Source: Myxococcales bacterium
GTDB taxonomy: Bacteria > Myxococcota_A > Polyangia > DRWM01 > JAAZOP01
NCBI GenBank assembly: GCA_012797735.1
Contig: JAAZOP010000458.1
Location: 1-48,098 of the forward strand
Length of the DNA: 48,098 nucleotides
Direction of reading: 5' to 3'
The notes beneath the pieces were generated by a model. It was not told where the DNA came from, ran no database searches, and saw nothing but the letters and a program-made list of their open reading frames with translations. Position 1 is the first letter of the stretch. Each line of letters opens with the position of its first letter. Below, piece after piece: positions 1,044 through 48,037 of this stretch. The position numbers and the translations under genes were made by a program.

Positions 1044-1553
1044 CTAGGCGCGGCTCGCCGCGGGCTCCGGCTGCGCCTGCCCCGCCCGCGCGCGGCGGTT
1101 CTTGAACATCCAGGCGCCGAAGGCTCCGCCGGCTCCGAGGAGCGCGGCGACGCTCACGACGTAGCCGAGTTGCCGGGCGGAGGCCGGCGCGAACGGCCCG
1201 AGGTCGTAGTGCGGGCTGATGAACGCGCCGGCCACCGCCAGCACGACGAGGGCCAGCGCCGCCCACGGCACGCCGCGGTGCAGGAACGCGAGCACCAGCA
1301 GGACGAGGCCGGCCAGACCGGCGATGCCGAGCAGCACGGCGCCGACCCGCATCCGGCCGGTGCTCTCGGCGAGCTGCTTGAGCGTGCCCGCCTCCGCGCT
1401 CGACCCCTCCAGCGCGGCGAGTTCGTCCTTGGCGTCGCCGAGCAGGGCGTCGATGTCCTTCGCGTCGGTCAACCCCCGGTACGTCGCCAGGAAGCCGAAG
1501 CCCGAGGTGGCCAGCAGGGCCAGGGTGGCAAGAACCAGCATCAGAATCCGCAT
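1044..1553 (-). CDS. small integral membrane protein (169 aa, about four hydrophobic helices)
   Basis: ATG at 1553 with GGAGG (complement of 1561-1565) 7 nt upstream. Helices: [81 protein letters not shown]. Only the last 169 codons of the 493-aa track ORF look coding. Confidence 0.75.
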
Positions 1554-1620
1554 CTCTCTTCCTCCTTCTTTTCTCGCGCCGCGGCCGTCCCGGCCGCTCG
1601 CCTCCATGCCGGCGCCGATG

Positions 1621-1637
1621 AGCATCCTCCGTGCCAG
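1621..1637 (-). promoter_or_regulatory. sigma-54 (RpoN) -24/-12 promoter candidate for the 1044..1553 membrane-protein gene
   Basis: The minus strand reads 5'-CTGGCACGGAGGATGCT-3', i.e. TGGCACG-N4-aTGCT against consensus TGGCACG-N4-TTGCW. GG-N10-GC spacing is correct. The site is intergenic, about 70 nt upstream of the ATG at 1553 and oriented toward it. Confidence 0.6.
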
Positions 1638-1677
1638 GGCGCAACCCTGCGGAAGAACGAGACGTGCGGGTGGCGGT

Positions 1678-1697
1678 GCGGGTCCGTCCGGACCCGC
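1678..1697. promoter_or_regulatory. inverted repeat, candidate enhancer (UAS)/operator site 1
   Basis: GCGGGTCCG-tc-CGGACCCGC, with perfect 9-bp arms. Lies about 45 bp upstream of the -24 element of the 1621-1637 promoter. Confidence 0.5.
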
Positions 1698-1709
1698 TTC
1701 GCGTCCGGG

Positions 1710-1729
1710 GTGGGTCCGCGCGGACCCAC
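1710..1729. promoter_or_regulatory. perfect 20-bp palindrome, candidate enhancer (UAS)/operator site 2
   Basis: GTGGGTCCGCGCGGACCCAC. Same GGGTCCG/CGGACCC half-sites as site 1, centres 32 bp apart (about three helical turns). Ends 48 nt upstream of the activator ATG at 1777. Confidence 0.5.
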
Positions 1730-1776
1730 TTGCGCTTCTCGGGCGCCCGCGGCTACGGTGCGGCGGTCGAGGGGCG

Positions 1777-3108
<1,332 letters not shown>

Positions 3109-4771: not shown

Positions 4772-4819
4772 CCTGCCGGCGCAAGGACGACCGAGTGTGC
4801 GACGAAGGCGACGGCGGGA

Positions 4820-28222: not shown

Positions 28223-29302
28223 CTAGACGTCATCGAGGTAGATCGCGACCTCGGCCTCCCGGACGTGCGTGTAGTCGAGGGTCACGGCGGTGAGCACGAT
28301 CCAGATCCAGCACGAGTGGGTGTCGCATTCGAGGTGGCCGACCGGGGAGGTCACGTCGCCGTACCACATCTCCTCGCGGTCGATGTTCGCGATCAGTTCG
28401 CCGGCGGAGCCGTCCCCGGCGTCGAAAGAGATGTTGGCGCCGTTGCCGAGCGTGCTGTCGTCGAAGGCGTAGACGAAGACGCTGACGTCCGTGACGCAGC
28501 CGGCGAGCAGCGCGTCGAAGCTCCAGCCGGCGTAGACGGTGGCGTCCGAGCCGGGGACGACCCCGGAGCTGAGGAGGATCCAGGGGGGGCCGAGGTCCGG
28601 ATCGGGGCTGATCACGTCGCCGAGCCAGACCATCTCGTCGCCGTAGATCGTGCCGAGCACCAGCCAGCCGTCGCCGCAGCGCGGCTGGCAGACGGCGTCG
28701 CCGCCGACGCAATCGTTGTCGAACCCGTCGCCGCAGATCTCGTCGGCGCCGGGATGGACCCAGGCGGCGGAGTCGTCGCAATCCGGGCCCCAGCAGCCGG
28801 CCCCCGTGCCGTAGCCGTCGCCGTCCTCATCGATACAGGCCGGGGGACACGGCAGGTCCCCGCCGTAGCAGTCGTTGTCGATCCCGTCGCCGCAGATCTC
28901 GCCCGCCCCCGGGCGGATCGAAGCGTCGGAATCGTTGCAGTCCGGCCCGCGGCACAGCGGCCCCTCGCCGTAGGTGTCGCCGTCGGCGTCGCGGCAGCGG
29001 GAGGTGTTGCAAGGGTCGTCGCCGCCGAAGCAATTGTCGTCGGTCCCGTTGCCGCAGATCTCCTGCGCGCCGGGGTTGTCCCACGGGTCGTGGTCGTCGC
29101 AGTCGAGGCCCGCGAACAGGCAGGCCGGGTCGGGCCGGGAGCCGTAGCCGTCGCCGTCGAGGTCCGGACAGCCGCCCTCGTCCCCGTCGCAGGCGGCGGC
29201 GCAGGCCGCGACCAGCGACAGGATCCCGAAGACCGGGCCGGAGCGCCGCTCCGCCGCTCCTCGGCGCCTCGACGTTCCCCCCGCCGGCCCGCGAGATTCC
29301 AC
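28223..29302 (-). CDS. lipoprotein with three MopE-like 'putative metal-binding motif' repeats
   Basis: Signal [12 protein letters not shown]. Three copies of D-x-DGDGYG...C..PDCDD.D....PGA.E.CGDG.DNDC.GGD..C. The C-terminal ~150 aa have no recognised domain. Confidence 0.75.
28688..29164 (-). repeat. three ~50-aa MopE-like metal-binding-motif units
   Basis: aa 47-205 of the 28223..29302 product, read from the translation. Confidence 0.8.
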
Positions 29303-29357
29303 GCCACGGCAGGATAGCCTCGGTCCCGAGGGTGCGGCAAGCGCGGATGCCGCCGAT

Positions 29358-29387
29358 TTGACACTGGCGCAAGGGGGCCGCTACGTT
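29358..29387 (+). promoter_or_regulatory. sigma-70-like promoter candidate for the Ser/Thr kinase gene
   Basis: TTGACA (29358-63) - 18 nt - TACGTT (29382-87), 30 nt upstream of ATG 29417. GGGAG SD at 29402-06. Confidence 0.4.
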
Positions 29388-29416
29388 GGGTCTTCCGGCC
29401 GCGGGAGCCGGCACCG

Positions 29417-31381
29417 ATGGAGTTGCAGGAAGGTTCCACTTTCGGCCCCTATCGGATCGTCGCCCGGATCGGGCGCGGCGGCATGGCCGAGGTGTACCTG
29501 GCGCAGCGCACGGGACCCGGAGGGTTCGCTCGCGACCTGGTGATCAAGCGCATCCTGCCGCACCTGGCGGAGGACCAGGAGTTCGTCCGGATGTTCGTCA
29601 ACGAGGCGGCGATCCTGGCCCGCCTCACCCATTCCAACGTCGCCCAGGTCTACGACTTCGGGCGGATCGATGACAGCTACTACCTGGCGATGGAGTATGT
29701 CCGCGGCACGTCTCTCGACCGCCTCCTCGCCGTGTTCGCCGGCGAGGGGCTGCCGATTCCGATCGCCGTCCGCATCGTCGCCGACACCGCCCGCGGCCTC
29801 GCCTACGCCCATCGCGCCACCGACGCCCTCGGCCGGCCGCTCGGGATCGTCCACAGCGACATCAGTCCGAGCAACATCCTGATCTCGTTCGAGGGCGAGG
29901 TGAAGCTGATCGATTTCGGCATCGCGCGCGCCGGCTCCCAGCACTCCGAGCACGGGGCGCTGAAGGGCAAGGTCCGCTACATGTCGCCCGAACAGTGCCG
30001 CGGCGAGAGGCTCGACGCCCGCACCGACATCTACTCCCTCGGCATCGTCCTCTGGGAAACGCTCACCGGCCGCAACCTGTACGACCAAGACCAGCCGGTC
30101 GAGGTGCTGACGGCGGTGCTGGAGCAGCCGACGCCGCCCCCGAGCGAGCTGCGCGCGGACGTCCCGGAAGCCCTCGACCTGATCGCCCTCCGGGCGCTCG
30201 AGAAGAACCCCGCGGCCCGGTTCCAGCGCGCCGAGGAACTGGCCCAGGCGATCGACCTGTTCATCGCCGAGCAGCGGATGCTGGCGAACCAGCAGGTGCT
30301 CGGCGAACTCGTCAGCAGCCGGTTCGCCTCGACGCTCGTGATCTCGATCCGCGACGAGGCGCCCCTGCCGGCCTCCCAGCGCCCGGCGCCCACCGTGCGG
30401 GCGGTGCCGGGCCTCCCGGCGGAGACGCCGCCGCCGCGCGTTGCGACGGGGCGCGAGGCGGCGACGGTGGCCGAGGTTCCGGCGATCCAGTCGCCCCGCA
30501 GCGCCTCGGCCTTCGAGGTCGCCCCGACCCTCGCCGAGACGCAGGGCCTGCCGCCGCCGGCCGCGACGCCCCTGCCCCCGCGCGTCTCGGCCTCCCCCTC
30601 CGCCGCGGCGCCCTCGACCTCCGTGCTCGTCGCCGAACCCCTCCGCAAGCCCGCGACCGGCGACTCCGCCGACCCGCGGCCGGTGGCGAGCGTTCCGGTC
30701 ACGGCGGCGCGGGTCGACGTGCGGGCCCCGGCGCCGGAAGGACTATCGGCGAGTTGGCGAAGCTGGAACCGCGGGACGCGCTGGGTCCTGGCCGCCGCCG
30801 TGCTGGCTGTGGTCGCCGCCTTCGCCTTCCTCGCCTGGCTCGGCATGCGCGATCACCGCGCGGCCGCTCCCGGAACCCGCGTCGCGGCGGGACCCGCCCC
30901 CGCGGAGTCCACCCAGGCCGCCCCGCCGAAGCAGGCCGGCCCGCCCCTGGCCGGCGACGCCCCTGGAGCGTCGCCGGACGCGGGCGGGGCCGATCCCGCC
31001 GAGGCCGCCGCCGCCAAGGAGGTCGACGCCGGACCGGCGGCTTCGCCCGAGGCGGGCGCGGTTCCGGTCGATGCCGCGGCCGGACCGCCCGACGCTCCGG
31101 CGGAGGCGGCCGATTCGCGGGACGCTCGCCGGCGCGACGGATCGGGCTTGCCGGCACCCACCGCGGCCTACGGCCGTGCCACGATCGACAGCCGTCCCTG
31201 GTCGGTCGTCTTCCACCGCGGCCGGCGGTTGGGCGAGACGCCCGTGATCGATGTCGAACTGCCCGCCGGCAACCAGCCGCTCGTGTTGATCGACGGCACC
31301 GGCCGCCGCTACGAACGGACCCTGCGCGTCCTGCCGGGCCAGCTCGTCCGCACCCGCTTCGACCTGCTGGAAGAGCCGTGA
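29417..31381 (+). CDS. Hanks-type Ser/Thr protein kinase, single-pass, with C-terminal PEGA-like domain
   Basis: GRGGMAEVYLA (G-loop), VIKRI (Lys), HSDISPSNIL (catalytic loop), DFGIAR, SPEQ. TM segment VLAAAVLAVVAAFAFLAWLG. C-terminus ATIDSRPWSVVFHRGRRLGETPVIDVELPAGNQPLVLID. Confidence 0.95.
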   Translation: MELQEGSTFGPYRIVARIGRGGMAEVYLAQRTGPGGFARDLVIKRILPHLAEDQEFVRMFVNEAAILARLTHSNVAQVYDFGRIDDSYYLAMEYVRGTSLDRLLAVFAGEGLPIPIAVRIVADTARGLAYAHRATDALGRPLGIVHSDISPSNILISFEGEVKLIDFGIARAGSQHSEHGALKGKVRYMSPEQCRGERLDARTDIYSLGIVLWETLTGRNLYDQDQPVEVLTAVLEQPTPPPSELRADVPEALDLIALRALEKNPAARFQRAEELAQAIDLFIAEQRMLANQQVLGELVSSRFASTLVISIRDEAPLPASQRPAPTVRAVPGLPAETPPPRVATGREAATVAEVPAIQSPRSASAFEVAPTLAETQGLPPPAATPLPPRVSASPSAAAPSTSVLVAEPLRKPATGDSADPRPVASVPVTAARVDVRAPAPEGLSASWRSWNRGTRWVLAAAVLAVVAAFAFLAWLGMRDHRAAAPGTRVAAGPAPAESTQAAPPKQAGPPLAGDAPGASPDAGGADPAEAAAAKEVDAGPAASPEAGAVPVDAAAGPPDAPAEAADSRDARRRDGSGLPAPTAAYGRATIDSRPWSVVFHRGRRLGETPVIDVELPAGNQPLVLIDGTGRRYERTLRVLPGQLVRTRFDLLEEP

Positions 31382-33689: not shown

Positions 33690-33812
33690 GACCCACCTCC
33701 GTTGAAAGAAGAGTAGCCGGTCGACGGGCGATAGACCACCCCGGAGCGTGTGGCGGCCGCTCCGTACGGTTGGCCCTTCCCTCCGGGCCGCAAGTTCCTA
33801 TACTGAGCGGTC

Positions 33813-35180
33813 GTGGGCAAGCGACCGTATCGTTCCGAGGAACAGACCAAGGTGGACCGGGAGGCCGCCGGCGGCCGGTCGCCCGAGCCGGTCCGCTGCT
33901 CGCTGTTCGTGATCGATGGACCGTCCTGCGGCCGTTCGGTGCGGGTGGGCCGCGACCCGGTGACGGTCGGCTCCGCCCCGGACTCGGACTTGGCCCTCGA
34001 GGACCCCACCGTCTCCCGCCACCACGTCACGGTCCAGGCGGTGCCCGGCGGGTTCCAGGTGACCGACCAGGGCTCGACGAACGGCACGTTCTACGAGGGT
34101 TCGCGGATCACGCAGGCGGTCGTCGGGCCGGGAGCGGTGCTGCGCGTCGGCCGGACGTCGCTCGTCCTGCGCCCGGACGACAGCGTGGAGGCGATCGAGC
34201 CGTCGGCGCGGCAGGCCTTCGGGGACCTGGACGGCGTGAGCCTGGCGATGCGCCGCCTGTTCGCCGTGCTGGAACAGGTGGCGCCGACCGACAGCACGGT
34301 GCTCGTCGAGGGCGAGACCGGCACGGGCAAGGAGCTGGTCGCCTGGGCGCTGCACCAGGGCAGCCCCCGCCGCTCGGGACCGTTCGTCGTCTTCGACTGC
34401 GGCGCGGTCCCGCGGGAGCTGATCGAGAGCGAGCTGTTCGGGCACGTGCGGGGCGCGTTCACCGGGGCCACCGCGGACCGGCCGGGGGCGTTCGTCCGGG
34501 CGAACGGCGGCACGGTGTTCATCGACGAGCTGACCGCGATGCCGCTCGAACTCCAGCCGAAACTGCTGCGGGCGCTCGAGTCGCGCGCGGTCAAGCCGGT
34601 GGGCAGCGATCACCCGCGCCCGGTCGACGTGCGGGTCGTGGCGGCGTGCAACACCGACATCGAGGCCGAGGTGCGGGCGGAACGGTTCCGCGCCGACCTG
34701 TTCTATCGCCTGTCGGTGGTCCACGTGCGGATCCCGCCGCTCCGCCGGCGGCGCGAAGACATCGCGCCGATCGTCCGGCGCATCCTGTCGCGGCTCGGAA
34801 TCGCCGACCCCGGACCGATCGAAGGCCCGAACCTGGAGCGGCTCACCGCGCACGCCTGGCCGGGGAACGTCCGCGAACTGCGCAACGTGATCGAACGGGC
34901 CGTCGCGCTCTCCGGCACCCGCGCGCCGCGGTTCTGCGACCTGCGCCTGCAGATCGGCCCCGCCGTGCAGCAGGAGGAGCTGCGGGTGCGCACGGAGTCG
35001 ACGTTCGCCGAGGCGAAGGAGGAACTGACCGCCTCGTTCGAGAAGCGGTACCTCGCCGACCTGATGGAACGCTGCCACGGCAATATCTCGCTCGCCTCGC
35101 GCGTCGCCGGCCTGGACCGCAAGCACCTGCGCAAGCTGCTGCGGCGGCACGGGCTGATCCCGGGCGGGGAGGAGGAGTGA
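33813..35180 (+). CDS. second sigma-54-dependent activator with N-terminal FHA domain (paralogue of 1777..3108)
   Basis: GTG 33813. FHA VSRHHVTVQAVPGGFQVTDQGSTNGTFYEG. GETGTGKE, GAFTGA, TVFIDELT. HTH NISLASRVAGLDRKHLRKLL. Confidence 0.9.
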   Translation: MGKRPYRSEEQTKVDREAAGGRSPEPVRCSLFVIDGPSCGRSVRVGRDPVTVGSAPDSDLALEDPTVSRHHVTVQAVPGGFQVTDQGSTNGTFYEGSRITQAVVGPGAVLRVGRTSLVLRPDDSVEAIEPSARQAFGDLDGVSLAMRRLFAVLEQVAPTDSTVLVEGETGTGKELVAWALHQGSPRRSGPFVVFDCGAVPRELIESELFGHVRGAFTGATADRPGAFVRANGGTVFIDELTAMPLELQPKLLRALESRAVKPVGSDHPRPVDVRVVAACNTDIEAEVRAERFRADLFYRLSVVHVRIPPLRRRREDIAPIVRRILSRLGIADPGPIEGPNLERLTAHAWPGNVRELRNVIERAVALSGTRAPRFCDLRLQIGPAVQQEELRVRTESTFAEAKEELTASFEKRYLADLMERCHGNISLASRVAGLDRKHLRKLLRRHGLIPGGEEE

Positions 35181-37950: not shown

Positions 37951-38895
37951 TCAGCCGGGATTGCGCGGGTCGTCACAGAACGACGGACCGCCGCCCTCGG
38001 GAGTGATGCAGGTCCAATGCCCGCACTGCCCCGCCCACGGACTCGTTTCGCCCTCCACCGCGTTCCACCGGCAGTCCCGCTGCAAGGAGCACGGCCGAGC
38101 GCAGTACAACACGGTGATCGTGGACCCCAGCACCTCGGCGGTCGCCGCGCGCGGAACGTAGCCCGACGGACACTCGAACCGCTCCGCGCTGCCGAAGTGC
38201 GGAATCATCGAGCAGACCGCGTCCGCGCCGTCGCACACCACCGCCATCCACGTGCAGTACCCCTCCGCCGCGCGGATTTCCAGCGGCCATCCGAACGCGC
38301 TCAAGGTCCGGAAACACGTGATCCGTGCGACTCCGTCGACCGGCTCCGGCACGGACTCGCACCCTTCGAACCTCCCGGCGCTGAAGTCGTAGTCGTTGCA
38401 GTCGGCGACGCACCGGCACGGCGCGCCGATGCCGTGGTCGTTGGCCGTGCACGAGGTGGTGCACTCGTCGAAGCTGTCCAGGTTCCCGTCGTCGCACGCC
38501 TCGCCCGGGTCGAGCCGACCGTCGCCGCACGTCTGGAGTCGCAGCGAGCAGTCGGACAGGCAGGCTCGCTCGAGGTCGCCGCCGCACCATTCGGTTTCGG
38601 TATCGCCGTCGTCGCACACCTCGTCCGGGTCGACGATGCCGTCGCCGCAGGCGGCCGGCGCGTCGGGTCGCCCGTCGGCCGGCGCGTCGTCCGATCCCCC
38701 GGCCTCGGCGTCGCCGCCCGCATCCGCACCGTCCGCCTCGACCGCCGCGTCGCCGCCGTCGTCGCCGCCGGTGCCCTCGACGACGACGTCCGCCTCGCCG
38801 GTCCCCGCATCGTCCGCCGCGGCCGACCAGTCGTGTCCGCAGGCCGCCCCGAGCGTTCCCCAGAGCGCGATCAGCCAAGCCTTCCTGCCGCGCAT
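37951..38895 (-). CDS. lipoprotein with two Myxococcus-type cysteine-rich repeats (CGDG..D.GE.CDDGN)
   Basis: ATG 38895 (GGGAGA upstream). Signal LIALWGTLGAAC, D/A/G linker, CGDGIVDPDEVCDDGD and CGDGRLDPGEACDDGN repeats, then an uncharacterised Cys-rich C-terminal domain. Confidence 0.75.
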   Translation of the reverse strand: MRGRKAWLIALWGTLGAACGHDWSAAADDAGTGEADVVVEGTGGDDGGDAAVEADGADAGGDAEAGGSDDAPADGRPDAPAACGDGIVDPDEVCDDGDTETEWCGGDLERACLSDCSLRLQTCGDGRLDPGEACDDGNLDSFDECTTSCTANDHGIGAPCRCVADCNDYDFSAGRFEGCESVPEPVDGVARITCFRTLSAFGWPLEIRAAEGYCTWMAVVCDGADAVCSMIPHFGSAERFECPSGYVPRAATAEVLGSTITVLYCARPCSLQRDCRWNAVEGETSPWAGQCGHWTCITPEGGGPSFCDDPRNPG

Positions 38896-39138
38896 GCCGA
38901 TCTCCCGCTTCCTGGGCGACATCATGAACGGTCCAGCGGCGCGCGTCCAGCCCCCGCGCCGCGCGGGAGCGCTCGAGCAGGGAGGCGCAAGACGCCTCCC
39001 GGCCGCTGGGTGCCCCGGCAAGACCGTGGTCCGGGACGGCGGAGTCGCGGCGGCATTCCGGCGTGGACGCCGCCGCCCGGCTCGCGTAGTCTGTCGCGAC
39101 GGCGAGCCGCGTCGCCCGCCGCGACGCGAGGAGCATGC

Positions 39139-40947
39139 ATGCCGGAACGGCACCGAACGCGAACCGCAAGCACCAGGTCCGTCCGTGTCGGGACGCCCAT
39201 CCTGCTGGCTCTGGTCCTGGCCGGCGTCGCCTGCCACGGCGACGATGCGACGACGACCGACGGCGGCGACACGGTCGACGCTCCGGCCTGCCCCGAGCTG
39301 TCCCCGTCCGCGACGACCGTCGGCGGCGAGACCTGCGCCGTCGAAGGGGCCTTCGACTGCCCGCACGCGGTGACCTGCGGCGGCGGCGGCGGGAGCGACA
39401 CGACGGAGCGCTGCCGCTGCGCGGGCGGCCGCTGGGTCTGCGGCATCGTGCCCTGCACGGCGCCCGAGGTCGGCGTGGCCCAGGGAGTGATCCGCGGCGC
39501 CGCCGACGGCCCGGTGTACCGTTTCCTCGGGATCCCCTACGCCCGGCCGCCGGTGGGCGAACTGCGCTGGCGGGCGCCGCAGCCGCTTCCGCCCGCCCGC
39601 GATCGGCTGGAGGCGCTCGAGTTCGGCCCCGGCTGCATGCAGACCCGCAGCATCATGACCGAGGCCGCGGTCCTCGACGAGGACTGCCTGACGCTCAACG
39701 TGTGGGCGCCGTCCGATCCAGGGCCGCATCCGGTGATGGTGTTCATCCACGGCGGCGGCTTCAACACCGGCGCCTCGTGCAACTCGATCTACGACGGGTC
39801 CGTCCTGGCGCGACGTCACGGCGTCGTCCTCGTCACCTTCAACTACCGCCTCGGCCCGCTCGGCTTCCTCGCCCACCCGCGGCTCACCGCCGAGGACCCG
39901 GCCCACCCGGCTTCGGGCGGCTGGGGCTTCGAGGACCAGCGGGCGGCGCTGGAGTGGGTCCGCGACAACATCGCCGCGTTCGGCGGGGACCCGGCCGACG
40001 TCACGCTGTTCGGGCAGTCGGCCGGCGGGCTGGCCGTCTGCGCGCATCTCGTCTCGCCGCGCAGCGCCGGCCTGTTCCGCCGGGTGGCGATGCAGAGCGG
40101 CCCCTGCTTCGAACTGTTCTCGACGCTGGAACAGGCGGAGGCGCAGGGCGAGGCGTTCGCCGCGGCGCTCGGCTGCGACACCGCCCCCGACCCCCTCGCC
40201 TGCCTGCGCGCCAAGCCCGCCGCCGAGATCCTCGGCGCCCTCCCGCTGCGTCTGGGGATGTTCTTTGGCGAGGGGGCGCTCTGGGCGCCGGTGATCGACG
40301 GCTGGAACCTCGCCGCCGAGCCGTCGCACGCGGTGCGGGACGGCGGCCCCCGCGACCTCGAAGTGCTGCTCGGCTCCAACGGCCGCGAGGGGAGCCTGAT
40401 CCGCATGATGACCTATCCCACCGGCCTGACGGCAGACGCCTACGAGGACTTCGTCGAGCTGGTCTTCGGGGAGCACGCCGCCGCGGTGCTGGACCGCTAC
40501 CCGGTCTCCGCCTACGGCTCGGTGGAGGACGCCCTGGACGATGCCATCGGGACGTTCGCCTTCGTCTGCCCGACCCGCCGCACCGCCCGTGCGCTCACCG
40601 CCGCCGGCGCGCGGGTCTACCTCTACCGCTTCCTGCACGCGCCGGGCTACCTGCCGTTCCCCGACATGGGCTCGTACCACACCGCCGAACTGCCCTTCGT
40701 CTTCGGCACGCCGCCCGCCGGACGCAGCTTCAGCCCCGAAGAGCAGGCCCTGGCCGACGCCATGGTCGGCTACTGGGGCCGTTTCGCCGCGGACGGCGCC
40801 CCGGGCGGATCGGGCGCGGCGGCCTGGCCGTTGCACGAGGCGGCTGCAGACCCCCACCTGAGCCTCGACGTGTTCGCGATCGGCGCCGCCGCCGGCTACC
40901 TCCCCGACGACTGCGACTTCTGGGACGCCCTGCCGGTCCAGCCGTGA
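39139..40947 (+). CDS. type-B carboxylesterase/lipase (PnbA-like) with lipoprotein signal and N-terminal Cys-rich module
   Basis: ATG 39139 after GAGGAG. Signal ILLALVLAGVAC. FLGIPYARPPVGELRW, EDCLTLNVW, FIHGGGF, and the nucleophile elbow GQSAGG. Confidence 0.9.
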   Translation: MPERHRTRTASTRSVRVGTPILLALVLAGVACHGDDATTTDGGDTVDAPACPELSPSATTVGGETCAVEGAFDCPHAVTCGGGGGSDTTERCRCAGGRWVCGIVPCTAPEVGVAQGVIRGAADGPVYRFLGIPYARPPVGELRWRAPQPLPPARDRLEALEFGPGCMQTRSIMTEAAVLDEDCLTLNVWAPSDPGPHPVMVFIHGGGFNTGASCNSIYDGSVLARRHGVVLVTFNYRLGPLGFLAHPRLTAEDPAHPASGGWGFEDQRAALEWVRDNIAAFGGDPADVTLFGQSAGGLAVCAHLVSPRSAGLFRRVAMQSGPCFELFSTLEQAEAQGEAFAAALGCDTAPDPLACLRAKPAAEILGALPLRLGMFFGEGALWAPVIDGWNLAAEPSHAVRDGGPRDLEVLLGSNGREGSLIRMMTYPTGLTADAYEDFVELVFGEHAAAVLDRYPVSAYGSVEDALDDAIGTFAFVCPTRRTARALTAAGARVYLYRFLHAPGYLPFPDMGSYHTAELPFVFGTPPAGRSFSPEEQALADAMVGYWGRFAADGAPGGSGAAAWPLHEAAADPHLSLDVFAIGAAAGYLPDDCDFWDALPVQP

Positions 40948-40997: not shown

Positions 40998-41025
40998 GCC
41001 GGCAGGTCCGGGACGCCCTGCCGGC
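40998..41025. terminator. hairpin between convergent genes (terminator candidate)
   Basis: GCCGGCAGG (40998-41006) - 10-nt loop - CCTGCCGGC (41017-41025). No U-tract. Confidence 0.35.
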
Positions 41026-41052: not shown

Positions 41053-41739
41053 CTACAGGTCCAGCTCCTGCTGGCCCAGCACCAGCGAGGCCTTGCGGTC
41101 GCCGTTGCGCGCCCGGACGTCGTCCAGGAGCTTCGTCGGGCTGATTCCGCGGCGCAGCACCACCGAGTACACGGCCTCCTTCGCCTCGCCGCCCCGCACG
41201 GTCTCCAGCGAGATGATGTTCGCCTCCTTCGCGTACCGCTCGAAGATCTCGCCCAGCAGTTCGTCCGGATTCGCCTCCCCCGGCACCTCGACCAGCAGGA
41301 TCCGCTCGTGGACCACCTTGGCGAACACGCGCAACCGGCTGAGCAGCACGATCACGCCGGCGATCCAGATCGTCGCGAAGACCGCCAGCATGTAGAACCG
41401 CGTGCCGCAGGCCATCCCCACGGCGAGCGTCGCGAAGATGAAGCCGACGTCGCGGGTCTCCTTGAGCGCGTTGCGGAAGCGGATGATCGAGAGGGCGCCG
41501 ACCAGCGTGAAGGCGCGGGCGATGTTCGACCCGACGATCAGCATCAGCAGCGCCACCACCACGCACAGCAGGACCAGCGTGTGGACGAACCCCTGGGAGT
41601 ACGACACGCCCCGGTGGGTCGCGCGGTAGACGAAACCCATCACCAGCCCGAGCACGAAACTCAGTCCGAGCACCAGGGCGACGTCGAGCAAGGCGAAGGT
41701 TCCCGTGAAATCGGTCAGCTGGCTCAGAAAATCGTCCAT
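41053..41739 (-). CDS. DUF4956 family membrane protein
   Basis: ATG 41739 after GAGGAG. About 4 TM helices, with the characteristic GALSIIRFRNALKETRDVGFIFATLAVGMACG stretch, then a C-terminal soluble domain. Confidence 0.85.
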   Translation of the reverse strand: MDDFLSQLTDFTGTFALLDVALVLGLSFVLGLVMGFVYRATHRGVSYSQGFVHTLVLLCVVVALLMLIVGSNIARAFTLVGALSIIRFRNALKETRDVGFIFATLAVGMACGTRFYMLAVFATIWIAGVIVLLSRLRVFAKVVHERILLVEVPGEANPDELLGEIFERYAKEANIISLETVRGGEAKEAVYSVVLRRGISPTKLLDDVRARNGDRKASLVLGQQELDL

Positions 41740-42521
41740 CGCTCCTCGCTTCCTCGCCGCGCCACGGCCCGCTCGCCCCGCCGCGCGGCCTCGATCCGCC
41801 GGAGGCCCGCGGCCACCGACAGACAGTACTTGCTCACCCGCTGGAGCTGGCACTCGTGGCGCGCCACCAGCGACGTGGCCCAGTCGGGCACCCGGTCGTC
41901 GACCTTGATCTCCATCACCACCGCCGTCTCCGGCAGCAGCGGCCGGCAGCGCGCCGGCGCCGCCAGGTCCAGCGCGGTGGTCCGCCCCGCGACCCGCGTG
42001 TCGAACGTCAGCCGCATCCCCCGCTCGTACCGACTGCCGACGAACGCCCGCCGCCGATACGTCACGATGCAGGTCGGGCGCAGCCGCAGCGCGCGCACCA
42101 TGTACTGGATCTCCGAGCCGGCGGCGACGTCGGCGGCGTCGCCCCCCGCCACGGCGTCCCGGACGCCCGCGCAGTGTTCGAGCGCCGCGCGGAGCGGCAG
42201 GACGACCCGGCGCTTCTGCACCGTCTGGTTCATCCGCTGCTTGATCTCCACGAACGCCGGCGTCGTCTCGTCGACCCCCCGCACCCCCGGGTAGACGCGG
42301 ATGCGGAGCTTGCGCCGGTACCGCAGGCCGTCCAGCTTCGCGCGGTAGAAGTGCAGGTCCGGACTGTCGTAATACAGGCTGGTCACCCGGTACCCGCCGT
42401 CGGCGTCCGCATGTTCGTCCGGCGCCATGAAGTGCAGCAGGTCCCGCACCAGCGGCTCCACCTGCCGCACGTGCAGCACGTACTTCAGCTCGTAGCGGTT
42501 GAACCGGCGCACGGTCGTCAT
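41724..42521 (-). CDS. VTC-domain (polyphosphate-polymerase-like triphosphate tunnel) protein
   Basis: ATG 42521 after GGGAGGGGG. FNRYELKY (ExK tunnel motif), YRVTSLYYDSPD, RRKLRIRVY, FVEIKQR, VMEIK strands typical of VTC/CYTH-like tunnels. The 3' end overlaps the DUF4956 start by 16 nt. Confidence 0.85.
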   Translation of the reverse strand: MTTVRRFNRYELKYVLHVRQVEPLVRDLLHFMAPDEHADADGGYRVTSLYYDSPDLHFYRAKLDGLRYRRKLRIRVYPGVRGVDETTPAFVEIKQRMNQTVQKRRVVLPLRAALEHCAGVRDAVAGGDAADVAAGSEIQYMVRALRLRPTCIVTYRRRAFVGSRYERGMRLTFDTRVAGRTTALDLAAPARCRPLLPETAVVMEIKVDDRVPDWATSLVARHECQLQRVSKYCLSVAAGLRRIEAARRGERAVARRGSEERWTIF

Positions 42522-43090
42522 CGCGCCGCCCCCTCCCGCGGCTCGACGAACCGCAACCCCGCCGGCTTCCCGCCGCCCGCCTCCGCGAAATCGCCGCGCA
42601 CCACCAGCCGCCCCAGCACCGGCCTCGCCTCCGGGAGCGGCGGCAACGGCACCACGCACGACCGCGTCCCCGCCTCCGCGAACTCGAGCCGGCAGGCCGC
42701 GCCGCCGACCTCCACCTCGACCGCCAGCGGCCACGCCCGCGCTCCGCGCGCCTCCAGCGTCACCGGCAACCCCGCCTCCGGGCCGCGCAGCGCCAGGAAG
42801 TACGACACCGGCGCCGCGCTCCAGCCGCCCGCGGTCCGCGCCAGGTGCTTCCGCCGCTTGCCGCCCAGCCGATCCAGCGCCAGCGCCGGGTGCCGTTCGA
42901 TGCACCGCGCGAGCGCCGCGGCGTCCTCCTCCGACAGCTCGGCCACGCCCCGGTCGGCCCGCGTCAGGATCCACCACGCCCGGTCGAGGTCCGGCTGCTC
43001 CATCCCCCAGGCGAGGAAGACGGCCAGCCCGCCCCAACTCGCGACGAGCAGCACGAAGCCGCCGCCGGGCACGAACCGCCGCGCCCTCAC
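42518..43090 (-). CDS. hypothetical N-terminally anchored protein (190 aa)
   Basis: The GTG overlaps the CotH stop (GTGA 43087-90), with GGGAGGAG 6 nt upstream. TM segment FVPGGGFVLLVASWGGLAVFLAWG. Its stop overlaps the VTC ATG (ATGA 42518-21). No family recognised. Confidence 0.55.
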   Translation of the reverse strand: MRARRFVPGGGFVLLVASWGGLAVFLAWGMEQPDLDRAWWILTRADRGVAELSEEDAAALARCIERHPALALDRLGGKRRKHLARTAGGWSAAPVSYFLALRGPEAGLPVTLEARGARAWPLAVEVEVGGAACRLEFAEAGTRSCVVPLPPLPEARPVLGRLVVRGDFAEAGGGKPAGLRFVEPREGAAR

Positions 43091-45903
43091 GGCGACTCCT
43101 CCCGCCAGCGCCCCAACGCTCCGTCCAACTCGGCCCAGGCCGAGAGCCCCAGCGACGCGCGCAACGCCGGCAAGGCGTCGTCCGGCAGCGCCCACGCCAA
43201 CTCCGGCACGGGATCGAGCGCCCCGTCTTCGACGACCAGCCCGGCGCCGCAGCCCGCCGCGCGGGTCCGCTCGAGATCCAGTCGGCTGTGCCCCGGCCAG
43301 TGCTCCCCCGACACGCGCACGACGGCCGCCGTCCCGTCGTCGCGGAACAGGACATCCGCGAGCTGCACGCGCGAGCCCGCCTTGACCAGCAGGCCGGTCC
43401 GCGAACCGGCCGCCAGCACCCGCGCCGCGCGCAGCCGGCCCCCCGAGCCGACGGAGATGGCGTTGCCGCCGCAATCCAGGAGGCGCGCGTCGGCCAGGGT
43501 CACGTCGCCGCCGTTCACGTCGAGCGCCTCCTGGCCGGCGCCGGCGACGACCAGCCGCTGGATCGCCCCGAGGACGAACTCGAGGTCCACCGCGTCGCCG
43601 CGCGCCCCGCGGAATTCGAGGTCGCCCAGCAGCAGGCCCCGCACGTAGGCCGCGCGGAACGTCTCCGCCTGCTGCCGGCCGCCGCGGACCCGCCCGTGCG
43701 CCACCAGGACGGCCGAGGTGTCCTGGATGTCGATCGCGCTCGGTGTCTCCGCCAGCGGCACGGCGGGCGCCGTGGCCCCCTGCACCTCGAAGTGCGCGAG
43801 CTGCGATCCGGCCGTCCCGGGCCCGATCAACACCAGCCCGCCCCACTGCCCCTCCTGCGGCACGAAGCGGATCGGCTCCGCGGCGGTCCCGACCGCGAAC
43901 AGCGGCCCGCGGAAGATCAGCGAGGCGTCCCGCGCCAACTCCACGGTCGTCCCGGGAGCGATCCACACCGTCTCGCCCGACCGGAACTCGCGCGTCTCGT
44001 CGACCCGCACCGGACCGGGACCCAGCCGGACGAGCCGCCGCGGCTCGGCCGGCAGGCACCACGGGTGCAACGACGAGCGTCCCGCGGTTCGCCGGAAGGT
44101 CGTTTCCGCGCAGGCGAGCGGCACCGGCGGACCGCCGGCGCCCGGCGCCGCGGGTTCCGCCGTCCGCTCCTCGACGCCGCCCGTCACCAGGTTCGTCGCC
44201 CGGAGCCGCACCGCGACCGGCGCGCATCCGCCGGCGTCGATCCGGAAACGGTAGGTTCGGGGGTCGCTCCGGGAGACGACGTCGCCGCGGGTCGGGTGCG
44301 GCCGGCGCGCCTCGAGCGCCACGCCCGGGTAGAGCAGCCAGCCGGGCCGCGCCGCCTCGGCCGGCCGCAACGCGCCGGTCGCCGCCTCCGGGCCGGCGGC
44401 GTCGGCTCCCCCGGTCCGCACGGTCGCCAGCCGCCACCGGACCGGCGCGCAGTCCGCCGGCCATTCCACCGTCACCCGATCCATCCGATACCCGGCGTTG
44501 CCGTCGACGGTCGCCTCGAGCAGCACGGCGCCGTCGGGCGACGACCGGCGCGTCCAGGCGAGCCCCGGCCGCGACAGCTCTTCCAGCAGATACGCCACCC
44601 GCCGCTCGTATTCGTCGAGCCGCGCGGCCAGCACCGCCTCCTGGCGTTCCGCCGTCATCGGCCGGATCATCCGTTCGAGGTAGTTGTCGCCGCGCGGCAG
44701 CAGGTCGAAGGCGTCCCAGTACGGGTCGGCCGCCTGGTCCCGCGCCAGCTTCTTCACCGTCCGCCGGGCCCGCTCGCGGACCGCCGCGGCCGAACAGGAA
44801 CCGTGGAGCAGCCGCCACACCTCCCGGTTCCGCAACGTCAGGTACTCGGGCAGCTCCTTGAGCCGCAGCAGCAGCGGATGCTCGACGCGGTTCAGCTCCC
44901 GCGTGTGCTGCCAGCCGCGGGACTCCGTCGCCAGCGGCTCGAAGCGCCCCGTGACCGGGTCGAGTACCAGCCTGTGGTTGCGGCCGAAGTCCTGGCGGTC
45001 GACGCCGAAGACGACGTGGATCGCGTCGAGCAGCGCGAAGCGCCGCAGGTCGAGATGGTCGCGCGCGAAACGGGCGAACTCGACCTGCGAGCCGTCGCGG
45101 ACGAGCGCCAGGAGGCGTTCGAGGGGCGCGAGGTCGGCCGGGACGCCGCCCGGCACGGCATCGACCCGCTTCCAGGACCGCGCGTCCTCCCACAGCCGGC
45201 TGACGCCCGTTTCCGGGTCCGGCGTGGCGTCGTTGCCGGAGTACAGCGGCCCGGGCACCCGGTTGTTCGCGCGCAGGAGGTCCGTGTCCGGCTGCGCGAC
45301 GAAGTCGTAGATCCCCATCGGCGCGTCGTTGAACAGCAGCCGGACCGGAAACGCCGCCGGCGCGAGCAGCCCCTCGGCCCGCGCCGCGTCCAGCACCAGC
45401 GCCTCGTCGAACACCAGCGGCTCCGGGCTGTTGATCAGGTTGAACGTGGCGGTGCCCCGCACGAGCCGCCCGTCGAGCACGCGCACCTTCCACGACTTCT
45501 GCGGGTAGTCCCGGTGCCACGCCTCCTGCCCGCGCAGGCGAACCTGCACCCGGAACGGCTCCCGGTCGAACGACAACAGCCCCTCGACGTAGGCGCTCGG
45601 ACCCTCCGCGACATCGCTCGACGCCAGCGTTTCGAGTGCGGCCGCGCCGAGGGTCAACCCCACCGTCGGCAGGTCGCTCGAACGGGGCGGCGCGGTGTGC
45701 GCCAGCGACCGCAGGTCGCGGGTCAAATGATCGTGCAGGTGGAGCTGGAACAGCTCGGCGTCGAGCGGCCGGTCCTCGCCGGTCGCGCGGTCGTGCCGCA
45801 CGTGCTCCGCCAGCGCGGCGCCCGCGTACCACAGGAGCAGGAACAACGCCGGCGCGGCGGGCAAGAGCCCCGCCGAGAGCCGCAGGCGATACAGCCGACC
45901 CAA
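43087..45903 (-). CDS. membrane-anchored CotH kinase-family protein with C-terminal parallel beta-helix region
   Basis: CotH-like core (RVQVRLRGQEAWHRDYPQKSWKVRV, FNLINSPEPLVFDEAL, MGIYDFVAQPD, HRLVLDPVTGRFEPL). N-terminal anchor LLPAAPALFLLLWYAGAAL. C-terminal beta-helix-like turns (DCGGNAISVGSGGRLRAARVLAAGSRTGLLVKAGSRV). There is no in-frame ATG; the start is assigned to TTG 45903 (CTG 45906 is the alternative), so the start is uncertain. Confidence 0.75.
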   Translation of the reverse strand: MGRLYRLRLSAGLLPAAPALFLLLWYAGAALAEHVRHDRATGEDRPLDAELFQLHLHDHLTRDLRSLAHTAPPRSSDLPTVGLTLGAAALETLASSDVAEGPSAYVEGLLSFDREPFRVQVRLRGQEAWHRDYPQKSWKVRVLDGRLVRGTATFNLINSPEPLVFDEALVLDAARAEGLLAPAAFPVRLLFNDAPMGIYDFVAQPDTDLLRANNRVPGPLYSGNDATPDPETGVSRLWEDARSWKRVDAVPGGVPADLAPLERLLALVRDGSQVEFARFARDHLDLRRFALLDAIHVVFGVDRQDFGRNHRLVLDPVTGRFEPLATESRGWQHTRELNRVEHPLLLRLKELPEYLTLRNREVWRLLHGSCSAAAVRERARRTVKKLARDQAADPYWDAFDLLPRGDNYLERMIRPMTAERQEAVLAARLDEYERRVAYLLEELSRPGLAWTRRSSPDGAVLLEATVDGNAGYRMDRVTVEWPADCAPVRWRLATVRTGGADAAGPEAATGALRPAEAARPGWLLYPGVALEARRPHPTRGDVVSRSDPRTYRFRIDAGGCAPVAVRLRATNLVTGGVEERTAEPAAPGAGGPPVPLACAETTFRRTAGRSSLHPWCLPAEPRRLVRLGPGPVRVDETREFRSGETVWIAPGTTVELARDASLIFRGPLFAVGTAAEPIRFVPQEGQWGGLVLIGPGTAGSQLAHFEVQGATAPAVPLAETPSAIDIQDTSAVLVAHGRVRGGRQQAETFRAAYVRGLLLGDLEFRGARGDAVDLEFVLGAIQRLVVAGAGQEALDVNGGDVTLADARLLDCGGNAISVGSGGRLRAARVLAAGSRTGLLVKAGSRVQLADVLFRDDGTAAVVRVSGEHWPGHSRLDLERTRAAGCGAGLVVEDGALDPVPELAWALPDDALPALRASLGLSAWAELDGALGRWREESP

Positions 45904-45986
45904 CAGCCGGGACCAGCCGGGCCCGGCGCCCCAGCGCCAGGGCCGAAGGCCCTCGCCGCCGCCCGGCTCGGCGGACGTGTCGTCCG

Positions 45987-47306
45987 CTACACGTCCACCG
46001 CCAGCTGCACCAGCAGGCAATTGACGCTCTCCCAGCCGCCCGGCCACTCGTCGGGCGCCAGCCCGCCCGGCGTGCGCTCGAGATTCGGTTCCTCGCCCTC
46101 GACCCGCGTGAACTGCCCCTCGACCATCACCCGCACGTACCGGCCGAGCAGCAGGTTCACGCCGGCCGTGGCGCGCCACTTCCGCTGGGCCCGCTCCGCG
46201 ATCCGCGGCAGCACGAGCTCCCCGCGGAACACCGGCTCCAGACCCACGTCCCACTCGTCCGACAGCGCGAACTCGTACGACGCCTCGAACGTCACCGCCG
46301 AGGTCAGCGGCGCACCCTCGTACCACCAGTTCTCCCCGAGACTCGCCTCGACCAGCAGCCGCAGGTCCGCCGGCCGGAACATCGCGTCCGCCTCCGCCAT
46401 CCACCAGGAGCCCGCGAGCCAACCGAAATCATCGACGAAGGAGGGGTTCCGCTCGAGAACCTCCGGTTCGACGAGGCGCGGCAGGTCGGCGGTTTCCAGC
46501 GTGTCGAGCGACACGGACAGGCCGAAGGAGAACCAGTCCACCGGCCGCGCCTCGAGGCGCGCGCTGAGGTCCTTGAGCCCGTCCCCGCCGCTCTCGAGCA
46601 GCCCCTCGCCGGGACCATTGAACACGCCCACCGCGTAGTCCAGCCTCGCCGCGTCCCACAACCGTCCCGTCAGGGCGACGCCGAGGTCCCGGCCGCCGTA
46701 CCCCAGGCGTTCCACGATCCAGCGGTTGGCCAGCCCGCGGTCGATCGTGCGCAGGTTGCGCCGCGGCGTCCGCTCGATGCGCGAGAAGGACCGCTTGAAC
46801 TGCCCCGCCGTCACGCGCAGCCACCGGAACGGCGACAGCTCGACGTAGGCGTCCCGCAACAGGCCCCGGGCCGACCCGGCCTGCAGCAACTCCTCGGCCT
46901 CCAACTCCAGGACCATCTCGATCCAGCCGGCGGGCTCCCAGGTCGCCTGGAGCCGCGCCGTGTTCAGCAGGAACTCGTTGCCGGGGTCCTCGACGTCGTC
47001 CGTCAACCGCCAGAGCGCGTACAGCCGCCCCTCGAAATCGACATTCGTCCAGTCGATCTCGCCGGCGGCCGCCGCGACCTGCGGCAGGGCCAGCGCCACG
47101 GCGGCCGCCCACACCGGAGCGACGCCGGGCCGCGCGGACCTCTCCTGCCCGCCCCCTCGCCCTCCGGCCCGAAGCGCATCGCCTCGCGCCGCCCGTCGCC
47201 GCACCTCCGGGGATCCCCCGCGGCGTCCCGGACCCTCGCCCGACGGCGCGGTTCCGGGGACCGCTCCGCGGGACGCAAGTGTCGGACCCGCGCGAAAGAG
47301 CCTCAT
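45987..47306 (-). CDS. outer-membrane beta-barrel, phosphate-selective porin O/P-like
   Basis: LLRDAYVELSPFRWLRVTAGQFKRSFSRIE resembles the DAY..-..GQFK.PF..E signature of porin O/P. Alternating amphipathic strands, ending in an aromatic/aliphatic C-terminus. Start uncertain: ATG 47306 (GGAGGGAGG upstream), ATG 47321, or GTG 47114 directly before the signal WAAAVALALPQVAAAAG. Confidence 0.65.
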   Translation of the reverse strand: MRLFRAGPTLASRGAVPGTAPSGEGPGRRGGSPEVRRRAARGDALRAGGRGGGQERSARPGVAPVWAAAVALALPQVAAAAGEIDWTNVDFEGRLYALWRLTDDVEDPGNEFLLNTARLQATWEPAGWIEMVLELEAEELLQAGSARGLLRDAYVELSPFRWLRVTAGQFKRSFSRIERTPRRNLRTIDRGLANRWIVERLGYGGRDLGVALTGRLWDAARLDYAVGVFNGPGEGLLESGGDGLKDLSARLEARPVDWFSFGLSVSLDTLETADLPRLVEPEVLERNPSFVDDFGWLAGSWWMAEADAMFRPADLRLLVEASLGENWWYEGAPLTSAVTFEASYEFALSDEWDVGLEPVFRGELVLPRIAERAQRKWRATAGVNLLLGRYVRVMVEGQFTRVEGEEPNLERTPGGLAPDEWPGGWESVNCLLVQLAVDV

Positions 47307-47401
47307 CCTCCCTCCGTCCATGCCGTCCACGCCGCCGGCGCCGCGTCGCGCTCGCCGCGGTGCGGATCCGGCAGCCTCGACCGCGGGATTCCGCGGGTGG
47401 T

Positions 47402-48037
47402 CTACAACCCCAACGCGAACACGAGCCCCCAGGCGGTGCGCCCCGTCGCCTCGTCGAAACCCACCGGCCCGGGAACGACCGTCACGCCGGCCCCGCCCCC
47501 CACCTCGTCCGCCGACCCGCCGCAGAGCGCCCACAGCGGCGCCCCGATCAGGATCGAAGCGGCCCCGATGCCGAGCAGCGTGTAGCCGATGATCGCCTCG
47601 ACGCCCGTCTCCGACCCGCCCCCCTGGCCCAGCTCCGCCCCGAGAAAGATCGCGCCGCCGAGCAGCGACCCGATCCCGTTGTAGGTCAGGTGTTCGCCCG
47701 CCGCCAACGCCGTCTCGTTCGGCTCCCGGACCTTCCACGTCTGCTCCCCGCCCGTCGCCGCGACCACGAACTCGTGCGAGCCGACCCGGAACAGGTACGA
47801 CCCGTTGGGCACGCGCATCCGGCACGGCGTGCGACACGCGACCGTCCCGCCGCTCCCCGACCCCCGGCCCGACCCCGCCGCCGCCCCGACGACCGCCACG
47901 CCGGGCGCGTCCGAGACGAACACCAGCTCGGTGTCGCCCGACTGCACGGCCCGCCCCTCGCTCTCCAGCACCGTCGGCCCCGGGGGCCGGGGCGACGGCC
48001 GTTCGGCAGGCGGCCGGAAAGGAAGGCCAAGGCGCAT
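47402..48037 (-). CDS. hypothetical protein with PEGA-like module and C-terminal hydrophobic segments
   Basis: ATG 48037, with an in-frame TAA four codons upstream. CRTPCRMRVPNGSYLFRVGSHEF is PEGA-like. Gly-rich TM segments GIGSLLGGAIFLGA and IIGYTLLGIGAASILIGAPLWAL. Confidence 0.55.
   Translation of the reverse strand: MRLGLPFRPPAERPSPRPPGPTVLESEGRAVQSGDTELVFVSDAPGVAVVGAAAGSGRGSGSGGTVACRTPCRMRVPNGSYLFRVGSHEFVVAATGGEQTWKVREPNETALAAGEHLTYNGIGSLLGGAIFLGAELGQGGGSETGVEAIIGYTLLGIGAASILIGAPLWALCGGSADEVGGGAGVTVVPGPVGFDEATGRTAWGLVFALGL

Follow-up and report, generated by a model that had tools for sequence, protein, structure and literature searches.

What is a myxobacterium doing with a chain of genes that couples a homologue of the eukaryotic vacuolar polyphosphate (polyP) polymerase to an atypical kinase fold and a porin-like outer-membrane protein? 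The chain lies at one end of a Myxococcales contig of 48,098 nucleotides (JAAZOP010000458.1, assembly GCA_012797735.1; the whole stretch is called the window), a chromosomal contig of 74% GC with rpsF-rpsR-rplI-dnaB on board. It comprises genes for a porin-like protein, a long CotH-family protein, a 190-aa protein (p190), a stand-alone VTC domain protein and a DUF4956 membrane protein. An earlier note, made from the sequence alone, had read it as a split VTC-like machine for polyP or a phosphorylated polymer of the envelope. In bacteria, polyP synthesis is credited to PPK1 and PPK2, and VTC is regarded as a eukaryotic enzyme. Our analysis places the locus as the diderm form of a widespread module, the core of which is a cytoplasmic Vtc4-type polymerase plus DUF4956, usually with an extracytoplasmic CotH-fold protein. 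The reading we prefer, to which we assign a probability of roughly 0.4, is membrane-coupled polyP synthesis serving an extracytoplasmic, glycan-directed CotH module.

To define what the VTC protein is, it was compared with Pfam and with yeast Vtc4. The match to Pfam PF09359 scored 156.6 bits against a cut-off of 23 (E = 9.8e-46) and spanned profile positions 1–232 of 235, and the RYELKY motif pointed out earlier is present. A profile of 27 VTC homologues matched the yeast Vtc4 catalytic domain (3g3q, E = 1e-5). In the alignment, K13 of the window protein corresponds to Vtc4 K200, R73/R75 to R264/R266, K94 to K281, Y155/R157 to Y359/R361 and S230/K231 to S457/K458; given a four-residue loop deletion, E204-x-K206 would correspond to E426-x-K428. 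All residues mapped to the Vtc4 site were invariant in the 27 homologues, so the catalytic residues of the tunnel, on which the reading of the earlier note depended, are intact. Cryo-electron microscopy of VTC has shown that these Vtc4 residues bind triphosphate and Mn2+ and are required for polyP synthesis, and that K458 sets active Vtc4 apart from inactive Vtc2/3, which have I or L at this position (bioRxiv 10.1101/2023.01.27.525886). Because all of the catalytic residues including K458 are kept, the bacterial protein groups with active Vtc4 and is a predicted polyP polymerase. It consists of the VTC domain alone, without signal peptide, SPX domain or membrane domain.

The bacterial proteins keep an N-terminal E-x-K (in RYELKY) where Vtc4 has T-T-K. 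The triphosphate-tunnel superfamily takes in hydrolases and cyclases, and the VTC protein might accordingly hydrolyse polyP or triphosphate, or transfer phosphate or pyrophosphate to a lipid or glycan carrier, with DUF4956 presenting a membrane-bound substrate. The frequent adjacency of the VTC-DUF4956 pair to polyprenyl-phosphate-dependent GT-C (PMT_2) and other glycosyltransferases would suit such a chemistry. However, the best hidden Markov model (HMM) for the protein is VTC itself, over its full length, and every residue needed for polyP synthesis is kept, including the Lys lost in inactive Vtc2/3; we consider a different tunnel chemistry improbable.

We asked whether the genes form a genuine unit. 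All six co-directional open reading frames (ORFs) described in the earlier note are present on the minus strand (Table 1). The CotH stop and the p190 start share a GTGA overlap (43087–43090), the p190 stop and the VTC start an ATGA overlap (42518–42521), and VTC and DUF4956 overlap by 16 nt (41724–41739). A census was made with family HMMs against the six-frame ORFs of the best 80 of at least 566 genome stretches encoding a VTC relative (loci of relatives are given below as L001 and so on); the protein collection held more than 960 VTC relatives. CotH and p190 genes overlapped in 37 of 47 related loci and p190 and VTC genes in 51 of 54, mostly by 4 nt, and the VTC and DUF4956 genes were spaced by no more than 30 nt in 70 of the 80. 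We conclude that the overlaps are conserved and not accidental, and that the genes for the porin-like protein, long CotH, p190, VTC and DUF4956 form a translationally coupled operon conserved across phyla. High GC does generate many long spurious ORFs, and in a genome of 74% GC the arrangement could in principle reflect mis-called frames or chance adjacency. This explanation is almost certainly wrong: the G+C content at third codon positions is 0.88–0.95 in the called frames, and all but one of the six ORFs are members of conserved families whose order recurs in dozens of genomes across several phyla. Chance adjacency of the operon genes was refuted by the census.

The VTC-DUF4956 pair was the most constant element. 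The two genes were adjacent in 76 of 80 genomes, and three of the four exceptions were contig ends. A CotH gene stood beside the pair in 64 genomes. Long CotH proteins were found in 45 (Myxococcota and 'delta' metagenome-assembled genomes (MAGs), Latescibacterota, Aminicenantes, Desulfocapsa and Sericytochromatia/Cyanobacteria), and p190 accompanied them in all 45. The porin was found in 29 of these 45 genomes, or in 21 of the 28 with ample flanks, mostly just upstream of CotH and, in L038, L039 and L042, downstream of DUF4956. The earlier note had asked whether the porin and the 190-aa protein travel with the trio of CotH, VTC and DUF4956; both do. In a Desulfocapsa MAG (L021:5611-10732) the order is DUF4956, long CotH, a weak p190 match and VTC; since all genes are kept in a new order, the linkage survives reshuffling. 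Metagenome contigs carried the same five-gene block at 60–92% VTC identity.

A short CotH (480–680 aa) was the sole CotH in 19 genomes, from Chloroflexota, Patescibacteria/Peregrinibacteria, Treponemataceae and Thermomicrobiales. It followed DUF4956 in 18 of them and lay upstream of VTC in L080, and all 16 short CotH proteins examined had an N-terminal anchor and intact D...NNYYLY...WD motifs. No CotH was detected in 16 of the 80 genomes, nine of which were incomplete contigs; five of the other seven were examined, and beside the pair three of these had GT2/GT4 or GT-C (PMT_2) glycosyltransferases and one (L076) a P-type ATPase. PMT_2 proteins are large membrane glycosyltransferases that depend on polyprenyl-phosphate sugars. 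Chloroflexota pairs with no adjacent CotH were flanked by glycosyltransferase genes at L066:8971-10005 and 12095-13192, L072:5171-10366 and L084:6723-9854. A CHB_HEX_C/Fn3_assoc domain was found on one CotH. The plasmid collection gave four VTC matches, two of which were typed with the family HMMs. Two loci came from cultured organisms, a VTC-DUF4956-short CotH arrangement in Nonomuraea gerenzanensis (L087, 7617-11036) and a VTC-DUF4956 pair in Paenibacillus cellulosilyticus (L088, 7932-9403).

In nine long-CotH genomes a further CotH, of the short kind, adjoined the porin (L003:3876-5255, L008:2871-5102, L013:4042-5601, L017, L026, L033, L035, L039 and L053); L001, of the window's lineage, had none. 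Inspection showed no pattern linking these extra genes to loss of the metal-binding Asp in long CotH (see below). In L003, arylsulfotransferase and FGE-sulfatase genes lie just upstream, a hint of a wider surface-polymer modification locus.

Next, the membrane partner was examined. The DUF4956 call was upheld (65.5 bits against a gathering cut-off of 30.6, E = 6.2e-18), and conservation extends over the whole length of the protein in all phyla sampled. Its match to MgtC (PF02308) was weak, 25.0 bits against a cut-off of 31.4 (E = 2.5e-5); some homologues have a precomputed PF02308 match, and the Joint Genome Institute (JGI) names homologues 'YhiD'. An AlphaFold2 (AF2) model with a mean predicted local distance difference test score (pLDDT) of 76 has helices at residues 2–41, 49–69, 71–91, 95–112 and 116–136, followed by a domain of the ACT/ferredoxin type. 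A basic motif, GSNIARAF..GALSIIRFRNA.KETRD, is invariant; R75, R87, R89, K93 and D97 are invariant and R96 nearly so. By the positive-inside rule, the N-terminus would lie outside and the basic motif and ACT-like domain in the cytoplasm. Foldseek searches with the model returned only ACT/ferredoxin-like domains, including the C-terminal domain of MgtC (2lqj), all at E of at least 5e-3; no VTC chain, no channel-like match and nothing at E ≤ 1e-3 was returned, and the family profile matched nothing significant among Protein Data Bank (PDB) sequences. On the model and these matches, DUF4956 is a predicted MgtC/YhiD-like five-helix membrane domain joined to an ACT-like domain. The yeast VTC channel is a pentamer of 3-transmembrane (TM) subunits (bioRxiv 10.1101/2023.01.27.525886). 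Since no VTC chain was found by Foldseek and the yeast channel is built in this way, DUF4956 is not a homologue of the channel. The notion of a split VTC polymerase/translocase therefore stands as an analogy only; a relation of DUF4956 to the 3-TM Vtc1/Vtc4 channel does not, the protein being MgtC/YhiD-like with an ACT-like domain instead.

This resemblance supports another explanation, in which the polyP made by VTC never leaves the cell, DUF4956 serves as an anchor or regulator in the manner of MgtC, with an ACT-like domain that senses a metabolite, and CotH, p190 and the porin are co-regulated envelope functions to which the pair passes no polymer. The Pfam match, the JGI names and the C-terminal domain all favour it, as does the lack of any channel-like Foldseek match, and MgtC proteins regulate ATP synthase and PhoR (bioRxiv 768473; bioRxiv 2024.04.20.589940). 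The authors of these preprints, who studied Streptococcus intermedius, likewise favour polyP that is cytoplasmic. In contrast, it leaves unexplained the near-constant presence of an outward-facing CotH beside the pair across phyla, the conserved 4-nt overlaps from CotH to p190 and from p190 to VTC, and the presence of the module in Patescibacteria with their minimal metabolism. We regard a purely cytoplasmic role as a serious explanation, though still an unlikely one.

The long CotH was next dissected by profile and structure. The family call held (42.3 bits against a cut-off of 23.8, E = 9.1e-11), and the family profile matched Bacillus cereus CotH (5jd9) at E = 9.2e-23. The AF2 model (pLDDT 89.2, predicted template modelling score 0.89) places the kinase fold on 5jd9 with E = 3.5e-14 and a TM score of 0.79–0.80 in Foldseek. 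The Arg-rich N-terminus, an acidic stretch downstream of the anchor and the invariant Cys485/Cys560 suggest that the protein is periplasmic, and the N-terminal anchors and charge patterns are consistent with both CotH and p190 being membrane-anchored, as the earlier note had it, and facing outward. Catalytic D305 (B. subtilis D228) and N309 are kept, and E327 occupies the position of the metal-binding Asp (D251); B. subtilis CotH cannot do without either Asp (PMC7821199). Among 32 long CotH homologues, the catalytic position was D in 30 and N in two, and the metal position N in 12, D in 11, S in four, E in three, G in one and Q in one. The degenerate metal site makes kinase competence uncertain, so that of the kinase seen in the earlier note the fold and the catalytic Asp stand, while an active kinase cannot be assumed. 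Many long members look like pseudokinases.

The beta-helix tail was confirmed and is structurally like polysaccharide lyases, epimerases and tailspikes: Foldseek matched it to a GH87 alpha-1,3-glucanase (1.6e-5), the P22 tailspike and the epimerases AlgE6 and AlgG, and further to PL6 alginate lyases, pectate lyases and capsule depolymerases. Several homologues have a PF13229 (Beta_helix) annotation, and Pfam at E ≤ 1 gave nothing useful for the isolated C-terminal part. The modelled structure thus identifies a beta-helix of the polysaccharide-processing type. An acidic cluster in it (D770, D773, E775 and D795) is nearly invariant. Conservation is stronger at this cluster than at the kinase metal site, so the beta-helix may have a catalytic activity of its own (lyase-, epimerase- or hydrolase-like) and be more than a binding module.

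The two partners found with long CotH are less familiar. For p190, no match was found in Pfam (even at E ≤ 1), NCBIfam or sequence-profile comparison with the PDB; the family has a conserved motif (PSxGF-TM-WG..TP.LDRVW) and is small, with 115 representatives among 1.84e9 proteins, all of ~180–200 aa. The Porin_O_P assignment made earlier holds for the family, 18 of 21 members matching at E ≤ 0.01 (best 3.1e-10), and falls short for the window protein itself, which scores 19.5 bits against a cut-off of 20.9; the phosphate selectivity implied in the earlier note would be putative. This protein has a GQFKRPFS motif. The family profile matched no solved porin among PDB sequences, and by its HMM matches the barrel family is a predicted distant relative of Porin_O_P.

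A porin of this kind raises the alternative of phosphate scavenging or storage, in which phosphate, pyrophosphate or polyP would enter through the barrel and be stored as polyP by VTC, with CotH and p190 as accessory proteins. In addition to the Porin_O_P match of the barrel family, a divergently oriented pair of genes for an OmpR-type response regulator and a HAMP histidine kinase recurs beside Chloroflexota modules (L054:7675-9797, L060:5365-7496, L069:2353-4493 and, on the minus strand, L074:7638-9751), and these proteins score best or near-best on PhoB/PhoR-like models. However, the scores are far below the NCBIfam cut-offs, so that the Pho link is unproven. Moreover, no ppk, ppx, pst or pho gene was found among the scanned ORFs of the 48-kb contig, monoderm lineages without a porin keep the module just as well, and a glycan-type beta-helix and a kinase fold play no part in uptake. 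Scavenging is an explanation to which we give poor odds.

In the envelope-directed reading that we prefer, DUF4956 would form an oligomer with a basic cytoplasmic face, and the VTC protein would dock there and polymerise phosphate from ATP. The polyanion would then be passed across the inner membrane, export being favoured by the inside-negative membrane potential. In the ATP-free periplasm, an assembly of p190 with the CotH/beta-helix protein would use the polymer on a surface glycan, either modifying or binding it, and the Porin_O_P-like barrel would let anionic species through the outer membrane. The strongest argument is that a kinase-fold protein located where there is no ATP is coupled, in most sampled genomes and across many phyla, to a predicted polymerase of an energy-rich phosphate polymer plus a membrane protein. 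A glycan context also recurs in unrelated lineages, in the form of pel operons, GT2/GT4 and PMT_2 neighbours, the CHB_HEX_C/Fn3_assoc domain and the beta-helix described here.

Several points weigh against this reading. DUF4956 has no detectable relation, by profile or Foldseek, to the VTC channel or to a solved transporter, and its nearest characterised relatives, the MgtC proteins, are regulators and not channels. The metal-binding Asp is lost in over half of the long CotH proteins, the porin is absent from seven of the 28 well-flanked long-CotH loci, and seven genomes have the VTC-DUF4956 pair without an adjacent CotH. In S. intermedius, single deletions of the trio genes left Pel production and aggregation unchanged in rich medium, and the authors, who noted the MgtC/ACT resemblance, assumed that polyP stays in the cytoplasm (bioRxiv 768473; bioRxiv 2024.04.20.589940).

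A bolder version of the proposal would make the module a third bacterial polyP route: VTC and a DUF4956 oligomer would export polyP to extracytoplasmic CotH-fold enzymes as phosphoryl donor or as cargo, and in diderms p190, the glycan-binding beta-helix and the barrel would complete an envelope-spanning machine for (poly)phosphorylation of surface polysaccharide. We judge this version rather unlikely to hold in full.

The trio itself has been described. In streptococci, clostridia and bifidobacteria, accessory genes for CotH, a 'poly-phosphate polymerase' and DUF4956 directly adjoin the pel operons; in S. intermedius they are SIR_1594/1593/1592 (Whitfield et al., bioRxiv 768473; bioRxiv 2024.04.20.589940); the trio is also present in NELoc-2 of Clostridium perfringens. 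The statement in the earlier note that these genes recur together with no assigned function was therefore correct, and published: our literature search found no experimental function for the trio and no paper naming DUF4956 together with VTC. The Pel preprint found no trio outside pel operons (bioRxiv 768473; bioRxiv 2024.04.20.589940); contrary to this, the trio was common outside them in the 80-genome census.

The boundaries of the unit differ from those first drawn. The ORF at the contig edge, which had been counted as a member, occurs only in 92%-identical relatives and lies outside the conserved module. It aligns only to residues 168–380 of a 380-aa homologue (L001:4135-5277) and has a Gly-rich, TM-like tail; given this partial match and its position near the contig end, it is probably an incomplete copy of that protein. 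The PEGA domain suggested as a candidate earlier gave no match in it at E ≤ 0.01, nor at E ≤ 1, and no other Pfam family matched it at the looser threshold. Nor does each gene have a strong Shine-Dalgarno sequence, as had been stated; similar motifs are found ahead of the porin, p190, VTC and DUF4956 genes, but not ahead of the TTG start of CotH or the start of the first ORF. The hairpin said to close the unit exists, but its role as an operon-closing terminator is unproven: its stability is indistinguishable from that of shuffled sequence (z = -1.3; 20 of 200 shuffled sequences fold equally well), it has no T-tail, and a terminator scan does not report it. A reading as a defence system was rejected, the PADLOC anti-phage defence models giving no match to any of the six proteins. 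NCBIfam had no family for any of the six apart from one weak ExtI-porin match.

Table 1. Coordinates of the operon genes, their predicted domains and adjacent features in the window.
Feature	Coordinates	Strand	Remark
Hairpin, GC-rich	40998..41025	-	Separates the operon from the convergent carboxylesterase gene, within a 105-nt gap; stem seen
DUF4956 membrane protein, 228 aa	41053..41739	-	Pfam PF16316; obligatory partner of VTC
DUF4956, C-terminal beta-alpha-beta-beta-alpha-beta (ACT/ferredoxin-like) domain	41077..41307	-	AF2 secondary structure
DUF4956, residues 1-136, five predicted helices	41332..41739	-	AF2 model
VTC domain protein, stand-alone, 265 aa	41724..42521	-	Homologue of the Vtc4-type triphosphate-tunnel polyP polymerase
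p190, 190 aa, N-terminal TM anchor and predicted outward-facing domain	42518..43090	-	Always accompanies long CotH
Long CotH-family protein, 938 aa	43087..45903	-	Pfam PF08757, profile, AF2, Foldseek
CotH right-handed beta-helix, residues ~620-895	43219..44046	-	AF2 model, Foldseek
CotH beta-sandwich linker domain, residues 448-581	44161..44562	-	AF2 secondary structure
CotH kinase fold, residues ~75-445	44569..45681	-	Alignment to B. cereus CotH
CotH N-terminal anchor/signal helix, residues 9-41 (...AGAALA/EH)	45781..45879	-	Sequence, AF2 helix
Porin-like outer-membrane protein	45987..47306	-	Predicted distant Porin_O_P (PF07396) relative
Contig-edge ORF, 211 aa	47402..48037	-	Start 46 nt from the contig end

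Elsewhere on the contig, a convergent gene of the carboxylesterase family (39100-40947, plus strand; COesterase, E = 9e-115) has its end separated by 105 nt from the stop of DUF4956, and the long ORFs on both strands at 37.4–40.9 kb are largely high-GC artefacts over the genes for this protein and a Cys-rich protein. Two Cys-rich repeat proteins (28223-29380 and 37951-39000, both minus strand) have a MopE-type metal-binding motif and DUF4215, and similar Cys-rich proteins flank the operon in L001. Two paralogous regulators with FHA and sigma-54 activator (AAA+) domains, a Ser/Thr protein kinase and a PAS hybrid histidine kinase are encoded at 1210-3108, 33807-35180 and 29318-31381 (plus strand) and 3134-4819 (minus strand); such a set is typical of signalling in myxobacteria. 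Synteny of the neighbouring sigma-54 activator and kinase genes holds in L001, the closest relative, and not in those further removed.

The wider interest is that hundreds of bacterial genomes tie a Vtc4-like polymerase with an intact active site to a membrane protein of its own, with carriers that include Myxococcota, Chloroflexota, Patescibacteria, Latescibacterota, Actinomycetota and cyanobacterial relatives, and with an outward-facing CotH-fold protein beside the pair in most genomes examined. If the pair exports polymer, it becomes testable how extracytoplasmic kinase-fold proteins are energised without ATP, and where surface-associated polyP or phosphorylated exopolysaccharides come from; the coupling of polyP synthesis to membrane transit would then have arisen twice, from unrelated membrane parts. 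Culturable carriers (N. gerenzanensis, P. cellulosilyticus and streptococci) make experiments feasible.

We finally compared the locus with known systems. The closest is the Pel accessory trio, which has the same outward CotH, a cytoplasmic VTC protein with catalytic residues, and a membrane protein with TM and ACT parts. The order there is CotH-VTC-DUF4956, whereas here it is CotH-p190-VTC-DUF4956, with no pel or other exopolysaccharide-synthase genes among the scanned contig ORFs, a 938-aa CotH with beta-sandwich, beta-helix and altered metal site, and p190 and the porin-like protein as two extra conserved partners. With the eukaryotic VTC complex (Vtc4/Vtc3/Vtc1) the window shares a homologous tunnel domain with its substrate- and metal-binding residues and a catalytic protein that is genetically tied to a membrane protein, with synthesis likely at the membrane face. 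Here, however, there is neither an SPX nor a 3-TM Vtc1-type (DUF202) domain, and the MgtC-like five-helix plus ACT partner is unrelated and a separate polypeptide.

With the Ser kinase of the Bacillus spore coat, CotH (5JD9/5JDA), the long CotH shares the atypical kinase fold, the catalytic Asp and the following Asn. Bacillus CotH acts in the mother-cell cytoplasm, whereas the window protein, predicted to be extracytoplasmic, has ~500 extra residues; at the metal-binding Asp the latter has Glu, and most members of its subfamily Asn or Ser. A glycan, and not a coat protein, is its likely substrate. The phosphate- and polyphosphate-selective porins OprP/OprO (Porin_O_P) share weak, family-wide HMM similarity with the window porin, which has a signal peptide and is a candidate for the outer membrane; unlike them, its own score is sub-threshold and its family profile lacks a sequence match to a solved porin. 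DUF4956, which has a weak Pfam MgtC match, resembles MgtC/SapB/YhiD proteins in having a multi-helix N-terminal membrane domain and then a cytoplasmic ACT-like domain, but its score is below the cut-off, it has an invariant basic motif of its own, and it is strictly paired with VTC, as MgtC is not. The domain calls and the CotH/VTC/DUF4956 trio were thus already known. What appears to be new is that the trio is widespread and pel-independent, with the VTC-DUF4956 pair as its invariant core, that a diderm five-gene form exists with long CotH/beta-helix, co-occurring p190 and a Porin_O_P-like barrel, and that the kinase site of the long CotH is degenerate.

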